6,696 nt of DNA from a virus. Its lineage: Duplodnaviria > Heunggongvirae > Uroviricota > Caudoviricetes. The notes under the pieces are model-generated. The model saw nothing but the letters and a program-made list of their open reading frames with translations, did not search any database and was not told the origin of the DNA. This document shows, one piece after another, positions 1 to 6,696 of this stretch. How positions within the stretch are numbered: the first letter of the stretch is position 1; every line of letters starts with the position of its first letter. The stretch is from IMG/VR virus record IMGVR_UViG_2606217117_000014; one strand, 5' to 3'. The translations under genes and the position numbers were made by a program.

Positions 1-1
1 C

Positions 2-352
2 CCGCCACAGGAAGAGACGGTGGTCAGCATTGCCGTTGATCCTGAGTCTCCGGAATCTTTCATGAAACGACCTAAACGTCGCCGCTGGGTTAACGAGAAA
101 TACACACGCTGGGTGAAGACACAGCCGTGTGCGTGTTGTGGTAAGCCAGCCGACGATCCCCATCACCTGATTGGTCATGGTCAGGGCGGAATGGGGACAA
201 AATCTCACGATATTTTCACGCTACCGCTGTGTCGGGAGCATCACAACGAGCTTCATGCGGATCCTCTGGCGTTCGAAGAAAAGCATGGTTCTCAGGTTGA
301 TTTAATTTTTCGTTTTCTTGATCACGCCTTTGCAACTGGCGTGCTTGGGTAA
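2..352 (+). CDS. NinG/DUF968-like prophage protein with Cys/His-rich HNH-type motif; C-terminal fragment, 5' end lies outside the window
   Basis: Frame is open from window start to TAA at 350-352. Translation carries CACCGK...HHLIGH...HD...CREHHNELH, a zinc-binding HNH-like pattern. Sits immediately upstream of rusA as in lambdoid nin regions. Family assignment is from memory, not a search. Confidence 0.55.
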   Translation, partial: PPQEETVVSIAVDPESPESFMKRPKRRRWVNEKYTRWVKTQPCACCGKPADDPHHLIGHGQGGMGTKSHDIFTLPLCREHHNELHADPLAFEEKHGSQVDLIFRFLDHAFATGVLG

Positions 353-364
353 AAGAGGTGACTG

Positions 365-739
365 ATGCTCATAGATTTGGTTTTACCTTACCCGCCGACG
401 GTGAACACTTACTGGCGACGCCGTGGCAGCACATATTTTATCTCGGAGGAGGGAAAGCGTTATCGCCGGGCTGTGGCGCTTATTGTTCGCCAGCAGCGGC
501 TGAAATTAAGCCTGTCCGGAAGGCTGGCGATAAAGGTGATTGCAGAGCCACCGGATAAGCGTCGTCGCGACCTGGACAATATCCTGAAAGCACCGCTGGA
601 TGCGCTGACGCATGCGGGAGTGTTAATGGACGATGAGCAGTTTGATGAAATCAATATCGTTCGTGGTCAGCCAGTATCTGGTGGACGTCTGGGGGTGAAG
701 ATTTACCCCATAATGCATGAAGAGCAGGTCAAAAAATGA
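365..739 (+). CDS. rusA: RusA-family Holliday junction resolvase (lambdoid prophage endodeoxyribonuclease)
   Basis: 124 aa. Contains PPDKRRRDLDNILKAPLDALTHAG, matching the recalled RusA catalytic block (DRRRRDLDN...FDALT). N-terminal LPYPPTVNTYW parallels RusA LPWPPSNNRYY. SD-like AGAGGTGA lies 5-6 nt before the ATG. Confidence 0.85.
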   Translation: MLIDLVLPYPPTVNTYWRRRGSTYFISEEGKRYRRAVALIVRQQRLKLSLSGRLAIKVIAEPPDKRRRDLDNILKAPLDALTHAGVLMDDEQFDEINIVRGQPVSGGRLGVKIYPIMHEEQVKK

Positions 740-1557
740 AACTGGAAGATTTACCGAAATACTACTCCCCAAAATCCCCTGGCCTGACCGATGCATCGGC
801 CTCAACGTCAAAAGATGCGCTGAGTATCACTGATGTGATGGCCGCGCAGGGCATGACACAGAATCGGGCTGAGATGGGTTTTTCTGCGTTCCTGGGGAAA
901 ATGGGCATCAGTATGAATGACAGGGTGCGGGCAACAGAATTACTGGCAGATTATGCACTCAGTCGGTGCGATCGTGTGGCGGCGTTGAGAAAACTTCCGG
1001 CAGAAATAAAACCGGTAGTGATGCGCATTATGGCTTCGTACGCTTTTGAGGATTATGCCCGCAGCGCAGCGAGTAAAAAGCAGTGCCCTTGTTGCTATGG
1101 GGAAAAATTTATTGAAAGCATAGTTTTTACAAACAAGGTCCAGTATCCGGATGGTAAGCCGCCGGTATGGGCAAAGTGTACGAAAGGTGTGTATCCGTCT
1201 TACTGGGAAGAATGGAAAAAAGTCAGGGAGGTGGTAAAAGTTGCCTGTCCGGAGTGTGGCGGAAAGGGTGAGGTTTCCACCGCCTGTAAGGATTGCCGTG
1301 GGCGTGGTGTCGCCATTCACCGTGAAGAGTCGGTAAAACGTGGTATGCCTGTTATCAGAGACTGCCAGCGTTGTGGTGGTCGTGGCTATGAAAGACTACC
1401 ATCAACGGAGGCATTTAATGCTATATGCGAGGTGACAAACCAGATAACACGCGCGTCATGGGAAAAAACAGTTAAGAAATTCTATGATGCGCTGGTGACC
1501 CGGTTTGATATTGAAGAAGCATGGGCTGAGCGGCAGTTAAAAAAGGTAACTAGGTAA
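736..1557 (+). CDS. Late-gene antitermination protein Q (QuuQ/Q-like) with DnaJ-type CxxCxGxG zinc-finger repeats
   Basis: 273 aa. Start ATG overlaps the rusA stop (ATGA at 736-739). Lies directly upstream of a lambda-like pR'/tR' pair. N-terminus MKLEDLPKYYSPKSP resembles recalled Qin QuuQ. Three repeats CPECGGKG, CKDCRGRG, CQRCGGRG. Confidence 0.75.
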   Translation: MKLEDLPKYYSPKSPGLTDASASTSKDALSITDVMAAQGMTQNRAEMGFSAFLGKMGISMNDRVRATELLADYALSRCDRVAALRKLPAEIKPVVMRIMASYAFEDYARSAASKKQCPCCYGEKFIESIVFTNKVQYPDGKPPVWAKCTKGVYPSYWEEWKKVREVVKVACPECGGKGEVSTACKDCRGRGVAIHREESVKRGMPVIRDCQRCGGRGYERLPSTEAFNAICEVTNQITRASWEKTVKKFYDALVTRFDIEEAWAERQLKKVTR

Positions 1558-1562
1558 CAAGG

Positions 1563-1604
1563 TTGATTTTTCCGGAATCTGTGGTAAATTCGTCATAACG
1601 ATGG
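1563..1604 (+). promoter_or_regulatory. pR'-like late promoter with Q-dependent pause element
   Basis: -35 TTGATT (1563-1568), 16-nt spacer, -10 TAAATT (1585-1590). Six nt later AACGATGGG (1596-1604), the same arrangement as recalled lambda pR' (TAAATT-TGACTC-AACGATGGG). Confidence 0.6.
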
Positions 1605-1638
1605 GCCTTTTATGCCTGACGTTAGAAGAGTTTCTACA

Positions 1639-1664
1639 ACCCGCCGCCGAGCGGGTTTTTTATT
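1639..1664 (+). terminator. tR'-like intrinsic terminator
   Basis: Stem ACCCGC (1639-1644) pairs with GCGGGT (1651-1656), 6-nt loop, then TTTTTTATT. About 65 nt downstream of the predicted pR' start. Confidence 0.65.
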
Positions 1665-1691
1665 GCGGAATTAATTACGGACCGTTATTAT
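1663..1691 (+). promoter_or_regulatory. Candidate sigma70 promoter for the tRNA genes
   Basis: TTGCGG (1663-1668), 17-nt spacer, TATTAT (1686-1691). Predicted start falls about 7-9 nt before the tRNA 5' end. Motif match only. Confidence 0.3.
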
Positions 1692-1700
1692 TCTGCTCCC

Positions 1701-1776
1701 GGCCCTTTAGCTCAGTGGTGAGAGCGAGCGACTCATAATCGCCAGGTCGCTGGTTCAAATCCAGCAAGGGCCACCA
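1701..1776 (+). tRNA. tRNA-Ile2 (anticodon CAU, lysidine-type; tRNA-Met not excluded), ileZ-like as in Stx phages
   Basis: Hand-folded cloverleaf: acceptor GGCCCTT/AAGGGCC, D stem GCTC/GAGC, anticodon loop CTCATAA, T arm GCTGG-TTCAAAT-CCAGC, discriminator A, encoded CCA. Close to recalled E. coli ileX. Confidence 0.85.
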
Positions 1777-1876
1777 TCACAAACCGCCATTAGCTTATCA
1801 GGAAGAGCAGACGACGCGATAACAGGGTTGTTGGTGCGGGGGCGGGTCCCCGATGGCGGTCCATTATCGGTATTCA

Positions 1877-1950
1877 GCGTTGTTAGCTCAGCCGGACAGA
1901 GCAATTGCCTTCTAAGCAATCGGTCACTGGTTCGAATCCAGTACAGCGCG
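1877..1950 (+). tRNA. tRNA-Arg (anticodon UCU, reads AGA/AGG), argN/argO-like
   Basis: Acceptor GCGTTGT/ACAGCGC (one G-U pair), D stem GCTC/GAGC, anticodon stem ATTGC/GCAAT with loop CTTCTAA, T arm ACTGG-TTCGAAT-CCAGT, discriminator G. No encoded CCA. Confidence 0.8.
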
Positions 1951-2090
1951 CTATATTCATTCTTCCAGATTCCTTCCGGCAGAGCCTTATACTGAAATAT
2001 ACCTGGCTCAGGATATTGTTGAAAATATTATATGTTTGTCAAAAATAAAAGTTCTGTTAAGTATTGATTGAGTGTTTGTTATACGGTCTA

Positions 2091-2417
2091 ATGGTTTTTT
2101 CAGCATTAAATATTTATCATTCATATGGTGTGGGTAGAGTGAATATTGATGAGGCGTCGGGGTGTTTCATCCTTAGGCAGCGTATTGATATAGTCAATGC
2201 AGCACGAGCAAAGGCCTTCAGCCGTTTGACAGTTTTGTTCTGTACTCCTGATCGTCTTTCGGGAAGAGACGTTATTATTCTGAATAGTGATGCTATTCAG
2301 AGGGTTTGCGATGAGTTCATGGTTGCTAATTCAGAATTATTTGCTCTTGTTCAGGAGTACAACAGAATAGCCAGGACCTGTGGTATGGATGAACTTCGGA
2401 TTACTCATCTGGGGTAG
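2091..2417 (+). CDS. Hypothetical protein, ~108 aa from ATG 2091 (117 aa if TTG 2064 is used), unknown function
   Basis: Open frame to TAG 2415-2417. Candidate promoter TTGTCA (2036-2041), 16-17 nt spacer, TAAGTA/AAGTAT (2058-2064) just upstream. No convincing SD. Occupies the position of stx genes in Stx phages. No recognisable motif. Confidence 0.4.
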   Translation: MVFSALNIYHSYGVGRVNIDEASGCFILRQRIDIVNAARAKAFSRLTVLFCTPDRLSGRDVIILNSDAIQRVCDEFMVANSELFALVQEYNRIARTCGMDELRITHLG

Positions 2418-2497
2418 ATACATATCTGGATTATCACTTGTTACGGTAAAAAGTGATTGCTTACTGTTTTTGTGAGTGGCATTGCAGCAGCCGGATA

Positions 2498-2584
2498 ATG
2501 TCAGTGCTGGCTGACGGTGTGCTGGTGGCGGGTGTGGTGGTTGTTGCTTTCCCGTTGCTGAAAAAGAAAACGCCAGACTGTTAG
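2498..2584 (+). CDS. Candidate small hydrophobic peptide, 28 aa (MSVLADGVLVAGVVVVAFPLLKKKTPDC)
   Basis: ATG 2498 to TAG 2582-2584. One predicted transmembrane-like segment followed by KKK. Weak SD (GGA about 5 nt upstream). Could be a chance ORF in GT-rich DNA. Confidence 0.2.
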   Translation: MSVLADGVLVAGVVVVAFPLLKKKTPDC

Positions 2585-2808
2585 CCGGGTATCAGTTAGC
2601 GGGAGAAATTTTTAAATACTTCACAATTCAGGCGGTTGACTGTTGTCTGGTTTGCGGGGAGTTTGTTAAAAGAAACTGGCATGGTGAATCCCCCTGTGCG
2701 GAGGGGCAATCAGCGAGTAGGTATATGGGATAATCGCGGATTCAGGTGCTGGTACTGAATTCACCGGGAGGCACCCGGCACCATGCAATGGCACATAGCG
2801 CCACTCTC

Positions 2809-2838
2809 CAGCCCCTCTCCGGAGGGGCTGTTTATATT
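2809..2838 (+). terminator. Rho-independent terminator, plus-strand orientation
   Basis: 9-bp GC-rich stem CAGCCCCTC (2809-2817) / GAGGGGCTG (2822-2830), 4-nt loop, followed by TTTATATTGATTTT. The reverse-strand flank is not U-rich. Confidence 0.6.
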
Positions 2839-2861
2839 GATTTTGTCAGATGTGAGTAAAC

Positions 2862-2895
2862 TCCTTATGGACTTTGTTGTTTTAGTCCATAAGGA
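2862..2895. repeat. Perfect 12-bp inverted repeat with 10-bp spacer (TCCTTATGGACT-N10-AGTCCATAAGGA)
   Basis: Read directly from the sequence. Overlaps the last about 10 codons and the stop of the minus-strand gene 2865-3200. Confidence 0.75.
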
Positions 2896-3200
2896 CATAT
2901 TTGCAGAGTGCAACGGTTATTAAAGCATTCATTCAATACGTTATCTGTATTTGTAGGACATTCCTGGCTGTTTTTGATTAAATTCCAGAATGTTTTATTG
3001 AATGGTGCTACGTTGTAAATGGTTACAGGTAGCACTTTGTTATTGAGCATGATACCTGTGTGAGTCAGTGTAAATATACTTTCAGGAGGTAAGAAAGCAT
3101 CCGATTGATACCAGATTATTAATTTTATTTTACTCCATATGACTGAAAAAGATATTCCGCATGATGGCTGGATAACTGTATCAATCACAATCCACTTCAT
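2865..3200 (-). CDS. Hypothetical Cys-containing protein, 111 aa, AT-rich moron gene convergent to the late operon
   Basis: Strong SD AAGGAA 6 nt upstream of ATG (plus 3198-3200). A 111-codon open frame in DNA that looks very AT-rich by eye is unlikely by chance. Translation: [18 protein letters not shown]...[10 protein letters not shown]. No recognisable family. Confidence 0.55.
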
Positions 3201-3240
3201 TTAGTTTCCTTGTTTATGTCTTGCTGGTGATGTTCTGAAA

Positions 3241-3267
3241 AGTATAAATGATATTTTTGAATGTAAA
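3241..3267 (-). promoter_or_regulatory. Candidate sigma70 promoter for the minus-strand 111-aa gene
   Basis: Minus strand reads TTTACA (plus 3262-3267), 15-nt spacer, TATACT (plus 3241-3246), about 35 nt upstream of the RBS. Spacer is shorter than optimal. Confidence 0.3.
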
Positions 3268-3460
3268 CCATAGAGCAGAATTATTTTTCTGATGTTGTTT
3301 ATTGTTTATTTAAATGCAGGGTGGTTTATATCTCGTCTTGTAGTTTATCCATGCATATCTGCTTGATGATGAGGTTTTTATTTAAGGTATGGTTTTGTGT
3401 TTTTTCTGTATTACATGTCAGGTATTTTAAAGAATTATTTTTCAGATGGTGGAAAGAACC

Positions 3461-5422
3461 ATGGCATTTAAACACTATGATGTTGTCAGGGCGGCATCGC
3501 CGTCAGACCTTGCGAAACGACTGACACAAAAACTGAAGGAGGGGTGGCAGCCATTTGGCAGTCCGGTGGCCATCACGCCTTATACCCTGATGCAGGCCAT
3601 TGCGGCGGAAGGTGATGTCACCACACCTGTGGTGGTGAAGCCGTCGGATGGAGAAGGCGCAGTTATCAGCACCACCAGCAACCCGGAGTATTACTTTGTT
3701 GTTGCCCTGGCCGGGCAGTCAAACGGTATGGCGTATGGTGAAGGGCTTCCGCTGCCGGAGACATATGACCGTCCGGACCCGCGTATTAAACAGCTGGCGC
3801 GTCGCAGCACTGTCACGCCGGGTGGTGCGTCCTGTAACTACAATGACATTATTCCTGCGGACCACTGCCTGCATGATGTTCAGGATTTGAGTAAGTTTTC
3901 ACACCCGAAAGCCAGCGCAGCTCAGTATGGATGCGTGGGGCAGGGATTACATATCGCGAAGAAATTGTTGCCGTTTATTCCGGCGAATGCCGGTATTCTT
4001 CTGGTTCCGTGCTGCCGTGGTGGTTCTGCATTTTTGGCGGGCGATGAAGGTACCTTCAGCGAATCCACCGGCGCAAGCGAGACCTCGGCACGCTGGGGTG
4101 TTGATAAGCCACTGTACAAGGACCTGCTTACCCGTACTCAGGCCGCACTGAAGGCCAACCCTAAAAATATTCTGCTTGCAGTGGTCTGGATGCAGGGCGA
4201 GTTTGATTTGAAACAGGGTGCATACGCCACTCAGCCGGGGCTGTTTGATTCCATGGTGGAAAAATATCGTTCTGACCTGTCGGAATTCGGAGGTCAGTGT
4301 CTCGGGGGCTCTCCGTCATCGGTTCCCTGGATTTGTGGCGACACGACCTACTACTGGAAGCAGACTTATTCTTCGCAATACGATGCGGTGTATGGTGCAT
4401 ACAAGACGAAATCCGCAAAAAAAATCTTCTTTGTGCCGTTTATGACGGATGAAAACGGGCGAAATGTGGGTACCAACGAGCCGTCAGAAGATCCGGATGT
4501 TGCGGATATTGGGTATTACGGAGGCGGTGGTCGAACGGACGCCAAAACCTGGACGACGGCCGACCGTAAAACGCATTTTGGATCATGGGCACGTCGTGGG
4601 ATTATTTCCGACCGTCTGGCAACGGCGATTCTTGTGCATGCCGGGAGAAACGCTGAATTCATTACCGGAAAACAGCCTGATACGGTGAAGCCCACCGGAC
4701 CTTCCGGTGAAGGTACGGAGAGAGAGCCGGAAGCCCCGGTCAGTAACCGAACCCTGATGAGTCTGCTGGCGTCCGGCGAAGACCTGGCATCACAGGGCTG
4801 GCGCTATTATCACAAACCGGCGAGCGGAGACAATGTTAACAAAAACATTGCTGAAGCGGTGGTCAGTGATGCGGGGGCTACGGGAGGTAAGGCCCTGCAA
4901 CTGAATAAACCGGAAAACCACATCTGGTTTCTGGAGCATGATGCAGCCGGACAGGGAGTGGAGTTACTGAAGAAGGGGGGACGTGTGAGCGTACGGTTTA
5001 AGTTGCCGGGTTCACTGGTGCCGAATCAGTTTGCCCTGGGCATTTACTGGCAGTTGTCGTCCCTGCCGGAGGGAGTGACGCTGGCAGAGGAAGGCAACGA
5101 CATGCTGATGTCCTTCTTTCTGCAGACGGATGCGACGAACCTGAACGCGATGCACCACAAGAAGCCGAATGCGAAGCTGGAAACGTTCGGGGTCTTTGAT
5201 AACGGATGGCACACACTGGCTTTTGAGTTTGCCGGAAACAACAGCATTCAGGTGACGCCGGTACTGGATGAGAAACGGGGGACGCCGTTCACACTGGTGA
5301 AATCTCCGGCATCAGGGGCGGCGGACAAACTGCAACTGACAGGCATATCAAAGGCGGCGACATATACGCTGCTGATTGACAGTGTGAAGGTGGAAGTGAA
5401 CAACGCGGACATCGCGGCATGA
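3461..5422 (+). CDS. nanS: Prophage sialate O-acetylesterase, NanS-p type (N-terminal DUF1737-like region, SASA/SGNH esterase domain, C-terminal extension)
   Basis: 653 aa from ATG 3461, which has SD GGTGGA 7 nt upstream; the ATG at 3446 has no SD. Block VVALAGQSNGMAYGEG carries the GQSN serine motif of the sialate O-acetylesterase family. Size and position match recalled nanS-p genes downstream of stx. Confidence 0.8.
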   Translation: MAFKHYDVVRAASPSDLAKRLTQKLKEGWQPFGSPVAITPYTLMQAIAAEGDVTTPVVVKPSDGEGAVISTTSNPEYYFVVALAGQSNGMAYGEGLPLPETYDRPDPRIKQLARRSTVTPGGASCNYNDIIPADHCLHDVQDLSKFSHPKASAAQYGCVGQGLHIAKKLLPFIPANAGILLVPCCRGGSAFLAGDEGTFSESTGASETSARWGVDKPLYKDLLTRTQAALKANPKNILLAVVWMQGEFDLKQGAYATQPGLFDSMVEKYRSDLSEFGGQCLGGSPSSVPWICGDTTYYWKQTYSSQYDAVYGAYKTKSAKKIFFVPFMTDENGRNVGTNEPSEDPDVADIGYYGGGGRTDAKTWTTADRKTHFGSWARRGIISDRLATAILVHAGRNAEFITGKQPDTVKPTGPSGEGTEREPEAPVSNRTLMSLLASGEDLASQGWRYYHKPASGDNVNKNIAEAVVSDAGATGGKALQLNKPENHIWFLEHDAAGQGVELLKKGGRVSVRFKLPGSLVPNQFALGIYWQLSSLPEGVTLAEEGNDMLMSFFLQTDATNLNAMHHKKPNAKLETFGVFDNGWHTLAFEFAGNNSIQVTPVLDEKRGTPFTLVKSPASGAADKLQLTGISKAATYTLLIDSVKVEVNNADIAA

Positions 5423-5423
5423 T

Positions 5424-5460
5424 AAAAAAAGCCGCCAGCGGCAGGAATGGAAGCTGGCGG
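5424..5460 (-). terminator. Hairpin with A-tract on its plus-strand 5' side; oriented as an intrinsic terminator for leftward transcription
   Basis: AAAAAAA (5424-5430), stem CCGCCAGC (5432-5439) / GCTGGCGG (5453-5460), 13-nt loop. No T-tract follows on the plus strand. Loop is large, so moderate-low confidence. Confidence 0.35.
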
Positions 5461-5558
5461 AGGTAATCCCAATGGAGAATGTAAAGAAAAGATGCTTTCG
5501 ACATCAATCATTTCTAAATGAAAACAGTTCTCATTGTCAACCATAACGGTAAGAAATT

Positions 5559-5741
5559 ATGACATTTATTCATCAGGTAATGCTGTACTTCTGTATGGCA
5601 GTCTGTGTTATGTATCTTCTTTCGGGTGGGTACAGGGCAGTGCGCGATTTCTGGCGCAGGCAGATTGATAAAAGGGCCGCTGAGAGAATCAGCGCCAGTC
5701 AGTCAGCCGGAAGCAAACCCGAAGATCCGCTCATTCCGTAG
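5559..5741 (+). CDS. Hypothetical small membrane protein, 60 aa
   Basis: ATG 5559. One hydrophobic segment (IHQVMLYFCMAVCVMYLLSGGY) followed by a basic/charged tail. Weak SD. An overlapping alternative frame from 5605 is also open, so the call is uncertain. Confidence 0.3.
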   Translation: MTFIHQVMLYFCMAVCVMYLLSGGYRAVRDFWRRQIDKRAAERISASQSAGSKPEDPLIP

Positions 5742-5778
5742 TCACTTTCTTGACAACACCTTTCAACGAGAAAATCCC

Positions 5779-5827
5779 ATGTCAGAAATCACATCCCTGG
5801 TCACTGCTGAGGCAGTGAAGGAAGTCC
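5779..5827 (+). pseudogene. 5' fragment (16 codons, MSEITSLVTAEAVKEV) of a gene interrupted by the IS insertion
   Basis: ATG 5779 in an open frame that runs straight into the IS terminus at 5828. The ORF-track continuation past 5828 is IS sequence read in the wrong context. Confidence 0.25.
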
Positions 5828-6696
5828 TGAACCGCCCCGGGTTTCCTGGAGAGTATTTTATCTGTGAACTCAGGCTGCCAGATCATCGTTTCCGATGGAA
5901 GCATAATAAGCTTTTTCTGCTTCTGCCGGAGGAGTATGGCCCAGCCTTTCCAGCAATCGTCGATTGTTATACCAGTCCACCCACGTGAGTGTGGCCAGTT
6001 CCACTTCTGCACGGTTTTTCCAGCTCTTACGGTGTATTACCTCCGCTTTGTAAAGACCATTGATGCTCTCCGCCATCGCGTTGTCATACGAGTCGCCTGT
6101 ACTTCCTGTTGATGCCAGTAATCCGGCTTCCTTAAGCCGCTGTGTGTAGGCCAGCGATACATACTGAGAACCTTTATCACTGTGATGGACCGTGCCGGAC
6201 GGTCGACGGGCCCATAACGCCTGCTCCAGTGCATCCAGCACGAATGTCGTCTCCATGGACGATGAGACCCGCCACCCCACAATGTATCCGGCAAACACAT
6301 CAATGATGAACGCCACATAGACGAAGCCCTGCCATGTGCTGACGTAAGTAAAATCAGCCACCCACAGCTGGTCAGGTCGTTCTGCCACGAACTGACGGTT
6401 TACGCGGTCGCCTGCGGCAACGGCTTTCCGGCTGATGGTCGTACGGACCTTTTTACCCCGGAGAACACCGGCAAGTCCCATAACCGCCATGAGACGTGCC
6501 ACAGTGCATCTGGCCACTCTGATACCTTCCCGTAACAACTGACGCCAGACTTTACGCACACCGTATACCTTGTGATTTTCATCGTATACGCGCTGTATCT
6601 CTTTCTTCAGCCAGTCATCGCGCTGCGCACGGGCACTGCGTTTATCCGGATGATGTCGCTGTTGCTGACAGTGGTAATACGTTGACGGGGCAATAT
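5828..6696 (-). mobile_element. IS3-family insertion sequence (IS629-like), partial; runs off the right edge of the window
   Basis: Terminus TGAACCGCCCCGGGTTTCCTGGAGAG at 5828 matches the recalled IS629/IS3-family terminal inverted repeat. Encloses a DDE transposase OrfB on the minus strand ending 42 bp inside the end. Confidence 0.8.
5870..6696 (-). CDS. IS3-family transposase OrfB (DDE integrase core), N-terminal part outside the window
   Basis: Frame is open from the window edge (hand translation 6560-6696 has no stop) to TGA at plus 5870-5872. Motifs WVADFTYV, HHSDKGSQY, DSYDNAMAES, YKAE are typical DDE transposase blocks. Confidence 0.85.
   Translation of the reverse strand, partial: IAPSTYYHCQQQRHHPDKRSARAQRDDWLKKEIQRVYDENHKVYGVRKVWRQLLREGIRVARCTVARLMAVMGLAGVLRGKKVRTTISRKAVAAGDRVNRQFVAERPDQLWVADFTYVSTWQGFVYVAFIIDVFAGYIVGWRVSSSMETTFVLDALEQALWARRPSGTVHHSDKGSQYVSLAYTQRLKEAGLLASTGSTGDSYDNAMAESINGLYKAEVIHRKSWKNRAEVELATLTWVDWYNNRRLLERLGHTPPAEAEKAYYASIGNDDLAA

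Follow-up and report, generated by a model that had tools for sequence, protein, structure and literature searches.

Comparative sequence analysis of a Shiga toxin phage-type late region with an iraL-bearing accessory block at the toxin position

Introduction

The late regions of the Shiga toxin (Stx) phages 933W (stx2) and 75/02 of Shigella (stx1) share a frame in which the antiterminator gene Q, the late promoter pR', the terminator tR' and the tRNA genes ileZ and arg precede the stxAB cargo. The frame continues alike in both with an STnc100-family small RNA (sRNA), a cargo on the minus strand, a NanS-p-type esterase and a holin. In this study, we analysed a stretch of 6,696 nucleotides from the viral record IMGVR_UViG_2606217117_000014 of IMG/VR (Caudoviricetes), referred to here as the window, with emphasis on its segment 1951-3445, which lies in the position of stx. 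The original prediction, made from the sequence alone, had placed in this segment a 117-aa open reading frame (ORF), a 28-aa hydrophobic peptide, an ORF-free stretch and a convergent 111-aa gene, none of which seemed to resemble anything recognised.

In published work STnc100 was placed 75 nt downstream of the stx2 operon, and EcOnc27/sRNA103, an experimentally detected Hfq-binding sRNA, overlaps STnc100 in part. EcOnc27 and PasD have been reported as discrete Hfq-associated RNAs, and STnc100, EcOnc27/sRNA103 and PasD all occupy the same position, which follows the stx slot and directly precedes the esterase. The minus-strand cargo of the two phages is an anti-sRNA of 50-60 nt, AsxR (RF02703) in 933W and AgvB (RF02702) in 75/02, and both lie between the STnc100 terminator and the esterase. 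AsxR and AgvB are said, in work attributed to Tree and co-workers of 2014, to antagonise host global regulators (FnrS and GcvB).

IraL of Escherichia coli CFT073 (c1429, located in the potB island) is a homologue of IraM with 58.9% identity (Hryckowian et al., 2014; PMC4045071). It binds RssB's N-terminal domain, as demonstrated by two-hybrid analysis and copurification, and sigma-S had a half-life in log phase of ~5 min in CFT073 and of ~2.5 min in the strain deleted for iraL; RssB binding and sigma-S stabilisation were shown for the iraL genes of both CFT073 and S. sonnei (PMC4045071). The 5' end of iraL was mapped by RACE (rapid amplification of cDNA ends), the gene has its own sigma-70-like promoter and is transcribed in growing lysogens, and it is documented as a fitness and virulence-associated regulator (PMC4045071). 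In later work, iraL (c1429) was found to be raised in a fur mutant and after a shift to 37 degrees C. IraM of K-12 (PDB 8twd) and RssC of Salmonella belong to the same family as IraL (NF007393), and all of them are RssB anti-adaptors. However, IraL contacts only RssB's N-terminal domain, whereas IraM contacts both domains (PMC4045071). IraM is induced by Mg2+ starvation whereas IraL is active in log phase, and their genomic contexts differ.

Results and Discussion

Composition and distribution of the block

The segment is very probably a lambdoid prophage late-region accessory ('moron') block, essentially that of the CFT073 potB prophage. The identities of its parts, its junctions, the coding selection on one of its genes and its distribution are established in the present analysis. 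Judging from the alignments, the block is composed of two cassettes that flank a conserved sRNA body. Its features are:

1962-2620: cassette A, allelic to stx2AB of 933W (blastn junctions)
2139-2417, plus strand: ORF92, a conserved small protein of 92 aa starting at GTG (phrog_2873, E 3.8e-70; coding selection)
2453-2584, plus strand: small membrane protein of 43 aa with DUF3927, starting at GTG (PF13064, E 1.7e-27, residues 2-43)
2650-2839, plus strand: sRNA of the STnc100/PasD family (Rfam RF02076, 132.4 bits against a gathering cutoff of 47, full model 1-206)
2788-3459: cassette B, comprising the variable 3' end of the sRNA, iraL and the iraL promoter (alignment breaks at 2787 and 3460)
2865-3200, minus strand: iraL, an RssB anti-adaptor gene of the IraM family by its identity with CFT073 iraL (110 of 111 aa, 333 of 336 nt)
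3201-3333, minus strand: iraL 5' untranslated region (UTR) and promoter, with the transcription start site (TSS) at 3233 and a -10 element TATACT at 3240-3245 (from the 5'-RACE end of PMC4045071)

The general anatomy put forward by the original prediction is confirmed with three boundary corrections, which reduce the 117-aa ORF to 92 aa, extend the 28-aa peptide to 43 aa and move the start of the esterase.

Window 1659-3618 aligns to the potB prophage of CFT073 at 96.9% identity, and the CFT073 iraL locus has the same order, namely Q, tRNAs, ORF92, DUF3927, STnc100, iraL on the minus strand and a DUF1737 gene. The two differ in their state of preservation. CFT073 carries IS200C between tR' and the tRNAs (11701-12159 of the retrieved locus), an intact middle tRNA-Arg and an esterase cut to a DUF1737 fragment. 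In the window, by contrast, the esterase is complete, the middle tRNA is degenerate and an IS3-family element is inserted further downstream. Because of IS200C and the truncated esterase, the reference iraL locus sits in a more decayed prophage than that of the window.

Of 5426 complete E. coli genomes, 863, CFT073 included, carry at least 80% of 1951-3445. Many carriers show 100% identity, and their sources are humans, rivers and wastewater. The part with ORF92 and DUF3927 occurs in 1185 genomes. Among isolated temperate phages, mEp460_ev081 matches window 1-2787 at 99.3%, and the sRNA and iraL are present in vB_EcoS-640R1 and related phages. The original prediction had named as its own refutation a common conserved region with functions already annotated, and this is what the segment turned out to be, with iraL, the Rfam sRNA STnc100 and the Pfam family DUF3927 as its annotated parts. 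The block is thus already known and common, with a main gene, iraL, whose characterisation dates from 2014.

These data bear directly on the proposal that the toxin position is occupied by a novel, unrecognised cargo for virulence or anti-phage defence whose expression follows prophage induction. The segment does sit in the stx position, and ORF92 and DUF3927 belong to families without an assigned function and lie on the strand of the late operon, downstream of Q and tR', which would fit such a cargo. However, three of the four parts fall into described families, and iraL is experimentally characterised (PMC4045071), is oriented against the late operon, under a promoter of its own. The defence-system models of PADLOC gave no significant match for the segment proteins, ORF92 is a generic helical hairpin without an enzymatic or toxin signature, and carriage of the block is widespread, isolates from water and from healthy hosts included. 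We therefore consider a novel cargo of this kind improbable. Parts of the proposal nevertheless hold for the potB-type accessory block. It is accessory cargo as predicted, and one part of it, iraL, has a documented association with fitness and virulence (PMC4045071). Expression on induction does not apply to iraL, which is convergent to the late operon and which growing lysogens transcribe from a promoter of its own (PMC4045071).

The minus-strand gene is iraL

By its sequence, the convergent 111-aa gene is iraL, a known and characterised gene. It was correctly described beforehand as AT-rich with its own ribosome-binding site and promoter: its GC fraction is 0.34, and both a Shine-Dalgarno (SD) sequence, AAGGAAAC, and a promoter are present. 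Residues 1-110 of the product match the NCBIfam model NF007393, 'anti-adapter protein IraM', with 162.4 bits against a cutoff of 121, and the product also matches the crystallised IraM (PDB 8twd) with an E-value of 2e-32. Identical genes in many genomes carry the name IraM from the Prokaryotic Genome Annotation Pipeline (PGAP). The name iraL was defined by at least 95% nucleotide identity to CFT073 iraL over the whole coding region (PMC4045071). With 333 of 336 identical positions the window gene lies within this definition, whereas just 52 of the first 78 residues are identical to IraM of K-12.

The published RACE sequence is found exactly in CFT073 and, when aligned to the window, puts the minus-strand TSS at 3233. 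From -100 to +33 the window is identical to CFT073 at 130 of 133 positions, above the threshold of at least 96%. From this similarity we infer that the window copy of iraL behaves like the CFT073 gene, RssB binding and sigma-S stabilisation included.

The Stx slot and its two cassettes

The late region of 933W, in which stxA2/B2 occupy positions 1463-2703 of the locus, was aligned to the window by blastn. Homology spans the tRNA block, ends at window 1961 (933W locus 1380), 10 bp past tRNA-Arg, and restarts at window 2621 (locus 2749), 46 bp past the stxB2 stop. As this gap encloses stx2AB, window 1962-2620 is allelic to stx2AB, and the predicted location of the segment in the stx position is borne out. 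The slot also lacks toxin genes, as had been stated: stx2AB of 933W (locus 1381-2748) has no counterpart in the window by blastn, and a Pfam scan of the slot ORFs of 117, 43, 111 and 42 aa revealed no toxin domains. Of the elements of an Stx-type late module, Q, pR'/tR' and the ileZ and arg tRNAs are found upstream and a NanS-p-type esterase downstream, and stxA and stxB are missing from the slot. This framing, which the original prediction had read from the sequence, was recovered by Pfam, ARAGORN, a terminator scan and alignment.

Homology to 933W breaks again at window 2787 and restarts at 3460, at the esterase start. The alignments to four unrelated loci all end at 2787. The conserved body of the sRNA is consequently the piece shared between cassettes A and B, and it may act as a recombination joint between them.

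The homology of the tRNAs, the sRNA body and the esterase to Stx phages could be taken to mean that the segment is a decayed remnant of an earlier Stx phage that had lost its stx genes, and a preprint on Pas sRNAs argues for repeated stx loss from such prophages. However, no stx-derived sequence is left in 1962-2620, where two intact conserved genes are found instead, the cassette boundaries are clean, and the cassette is also found in Citrobacter and together with other types of Q. Such an origin is, in our view, extremely unlikely, and an accessory block of the potB type describes the data better.

Compared with 933W and 75/02, the window has ORF92 and DUF3927 where these phages have stxAB, and iraL where they have AsxR or AgvB. 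Cassette B also exchanges the 3' end of the sRNA of these phages for its own. The slot and strand of iraL and the anti-sRNAs are the same, but iraL is a protein gene whereas AsxR and AgvB are short RNAs, and no AsxR- or AgvB-related sequence was detected in the window by Rfam at E-values up to 1. The three cargoes AsxR, AgvB and IraL would all counter host regulators, which is a likeness rather than a tested rule. It is tempting to speculate further that ORF92 is a lysogenic-conversion factor and that the minus-strand slot between STnc100 and the esterase is dedicated to cargo that sequesters host global regulators. In that case, AsxR could act against FnrS, AgvB against GcvB and IraL against RssB, and the hypervariable 3' segment of the sRNA could be swapped along with the minus-strand cargo. 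This combined proposal is tentative, and we regard it as rather unlikely.

ORF92 and the DUF3927 protein

The longest open frame around ORF92 spans 2064-2417, starts with TTG and encodes the 117 aa originally reported. The starts TTG-2064 and ATG-2091 were dropped in favour of GTG 2139, where the homologues of 91-95 aa begin. In E. coli SOI121 the homologue is annotated, has an AGGAG SD and is preceded by a stop 10 codons upstream of its start, and in E. coli 94-3024 the N-terminal extension of the homologue lies in another frame. These homologue starts, the SOI121 stop, the frame in 94-3024 and the ratio of non-synonymous to synonymous substitution rates (dN/dS) together indicate that the real gene is 2139-2417 and encodes 92 aa. 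The predicted open frame is thus real, but its boundary was wrong.

A chance open frame in a non-coding spacer would be another explanation for the 117/92-aa ORF. The gene is left unannotated by PGAP or RAST in SCU-172, CFT073 and mEp460_ev081, its start is TTG or GTG with a weak SD, and it belongs to no Pfam or NCBIfam family, all of which would suit a fortuitous frame. However, dN/dS is 0.26-0.29 in frame and ~0.8-1.2 in the shifted frames (Nei-Gojobori, three diverged copies, 92 codons), and the substitutions show an excess at third positions with no indels and no stops, which largely refutes this explanation. Moreover, homologues at 32-63% identity have equal length without a frameshift, the match to phrog_2873 is strong, the annotated SOI121 homologue has a good SD, and AlphaFold2 predicts a structure with a mean predicted local distance difference test score of 91.6 from an alignment of 13 sequences. 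A chance frame is therefore highly improbable, and we treat ORF92 as a coding gene.

Homologues of ORF92 down to 32% identity are found in E. coli, Shigella, Citrobacter and Salmonella. A HMMER search against 1.84 billion representatives returned 20 matches, all hypothetical Enterobacteriaceae proteins except for one spurious repeat protein. The predicted structure consists of a helix (3-34), a beta-hairpin (39-46) and a second helix (50-81). A profile search of the PDB was empty, Foldseek found nothing in BFVD at E <=0.001, and the structure searches yielded generic helical hairpins only. A literature search with the CFT073 locus tags c1426-c1428 led to unrelated papers only. With low confidence, ORF92 may be a small protein-binding or oligomerising factor.

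The neighbourhoods of the homologues vary. In a Citrobacter prophage the homologue lies between Q and holin, with a TerB-like gene and DUF3927 next in order. In E. coli 94-3024 the homologue lies directly downstream of a helix-turn-helix (HTH) domain gene (4257-4982 of the locus), which encodes a 241-aa AraC-type (HTH_18) regulator according to Pfam matches on the matching Logan contig (164-889). Plasmid-like contigs with a Rep3 replication gene carry a 34%-identical homologue beside a PapB/K88-like fimbrial operon. Potentially, ORF92, which is allelic to stxAB, could be a functional lysogenic-conversion factor, for example one that binds and inhibits a host protein. It might perhaps act together with DUF3927, as the Citrobacter homologue also lies two genes upstream of DUF3927.

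The 28-aa hydrophobic peptide of the original prediction (ATG 2498) exists as an ORF and is only the C-terminal part of the 43-aa DUF3927 protein, which scores 95.6 bits against PF13064 (gathering cutoff 25). The protein also matches phrog_1470, 'TciB-like', and has a PGAP entry, WP_000562553.1, in SCU-172 and CFT073. Literature searches gave at most a passing mention of DUF3927, and those for TciA/TciB returned Trypanosoma genotypes alone.

The STnc100-family sRNA

The ORF-free stretch of normal GC content that was predicted to end in a terminator spans 2585-2839, with a GC fraction of ~0.50, and contains the sRNA. The 3' end of the sRNA is an intrinsic terminator at 2809-2830 with a 9-bp stem and a T-rich tail. 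In 933W we find the family 75 nt downstream of stxB2, in agreement with the published placement, and in 75/02 downstream of stx1B. Six STnc100 copies share their body up to CACCGGGAGGCACCCGGCACCATGCA and then have a wholly different stretch of ~25 nt before the terminator. The window copy accordingly has ~25 nt that are specific to its variant, and it is followed by iraL and not by an anti-sRNA. This hypervariable stretch may carry the target specificity, or seed, of the sRNA. By homology to EcOnc27 and PasD, the window sRNA would be Hfq-dependent.

A partial pseudo-CDS, 'hypothetical protein', annotated by PGAP on the minus strand at 2669-2794 lies wholly within the STnc100 RNA and is probably an annotation artefact. 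Multiple copies of the sRNA were also observed. E. coli 94-3024 contains five window-like copies by blastn within 3630-6561 of the retrieved locus, one lying upstream of the HTH gene and a tandem run of four separating the ORF92 homologue from the esterase, and phage vB_EcoS-640R1 has two copies by Rfam (4165-4822 of its locus).

Expression of the block

For ORF92, DUF3927 and the sRNA, we infer both transcription and whatever function they may have. In the lysogen, transcripts from pR' would end at tR' and iraL would be made during growth from its own sigma-70-type promoter. IraL would then bind RssB's N-terminal domain and block the delivery of sigma-S to ClpXP, so that RpoS rises in log phase. 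The sRNA, as judged from its relatives, would be made as an Hfq-dependent regulator. Upon induction, Q-modified polymerase would pass tR', the tRNAs, ORF92, DUF3927 and the sRNA and proceed to the esterase and the lysis genes, and, according to the layout, this late transcription would run against that of iraL. By their position, ORF92 and DUF3927 would be read with the late operon upon antitermination by Q at tR'. Possibly, they are also read from a local AT-rich promoter at ~2019-2046.

Several observations weigh against the view of the segment as a functional block of the CFT073 type. Window IraL has A65 where CFT073 has V, and three positions in the iraL promoter and UTR differ from CFT073, one of them at -1 and one beside the SD. 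The full four-part combination was found in no record of the phage collection, the best record covering 64%. A consensus scan for sigma-70 promoters gave no convincing candidate immediately upstream of 2650, where the sRNA begins. The SD of ORF92 is weak in the window (GGGTAGA before GTG) compared with AGGAG in SOI121, and the gene is called by neither PGAP nor RAST.

What is modestly new here is the location of iraL in the modular map of an Stx-type late region, with two cassettes around an sRNA body, and in the slot and strand of the anti-sRNAs AsxR and AgvB. To this can be added a small gene under purifying selection, ORF92, absent from the standard annotation of hundreds of genomes, as well as the corrected boundaries of two ORFs. 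If ORF92 or DUF3927 were to affect host physiology, the expression site of Shiga toxin would here be occupied by non-toxin genes.

The late-region frame and flanking genes

The features that surround the block are:

20-352: C-terminal part of a DUF968 protein (ORF listing and family scans)
365-739: RusA (ORF listing and family scans)
736-1557, plus strand: late-gene antiterminator Q (PF03589, E 2.2e-54; 'antitermination protein' in PGAP for identical records)
1563-1590, plus strand: pR'-like late promoter, TTGATT-16-TAAATT, with AACGAT at 1597-1602 (read from the sequence)
1638-1657, plus strand: hairpin of the tR' intrinsic terminator, extending to 1665 with the T run (7-bp GC-rich stem and TTTTATT)
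1701-1776, plus strand: tRNA-Ile2, anticodon CAT, ileZ type (ARAGORN; Rfam 72.5 bits)
1777-1876, plus strand: middle tRNA-Arg of the argN position, reduced to a degenerate remnant (aligned with CFT073 and 933W)
1877-1951, plus strand: tRNA-Arg, anticodon TCT, argO type (ARAGORN, Rfam and alignment)
3461-5422, plus strand: NanS-p-type SASA carbohydrate esterase with DUF1737, SASA and DUF6645 (Pfam, PGAP start, 933W homology)
downstream of the esterase: DUF1378 gene (family scans)
5830-6696: IS3-family element with its transposase on the minus strand, splitting a DUF826 gene (family scans)

The window Q protein (273 aa, PF03589, with a zinc-ribbon region) differs in type from Q of 933W and 75/02. 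Within the pR'-like element, AACGAT begins six bases past TAAATT, and we take 1563-1602 to resemble the lambda pR' start with its sigma-70 pause (qut) element at a lambda-like spacing. The consensus promoter scan did not list the element at 1563-1590, which has 8 of 12 consensus matches. The short transcript predicted from pR' to tR', ~60-70 nt long, would presumably correspond to 6S RNA in lambda and to StxS in Stx phages. Weak Rfam matches to Trp_leader (1558-1664, E 0.08), Plastid-ycf2, snoZ30 and Yar_3 were set aside as fortuitous or as reflections of the terminator and tRNAs.

The tRNA(CAT) at 1701-1776 is identical to ileZ of 933W and is labelled tRNA-Ile by PGAP. In the remnant at 1777-1876, the acceptor, D and T-arm ends are kept and the anticodon region is rewritten when compared with CFT073 and 933W, and neither ARAGORN nor Rfam calls a tRNA there. 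This degenerate version is common to the window and phage mEp460_ev081, whereas the middle tRNA-Arg is intact in CFT073 and 933W. In the cargo, the rare codon ATA accounts for 6 of 13 Ile codons in iraL, and AGA/AGG for 5 of 10 Arg codons in ORF92. The adjoining phage tRNA-Ile2(CAU) and tRNA-Arg(UCU) match the codon use of iraL and ORF92, a correspondence that is suggestive only.

The longest ORF of the esterase opens at ATG 3446. The start is probably ATG 3461, which is favoured because PGAP places it there and homology to 933W restarts at 3460. Given this homology to the 933W esterase from 3460, the boundary of cassette B coincides with the start codon. Further downstream, the window matches strain SCU-172 through 5829, up to the insertion point of the IS3-family element, copies of which are present in 4192 of the 5426 E. 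coli genomes.

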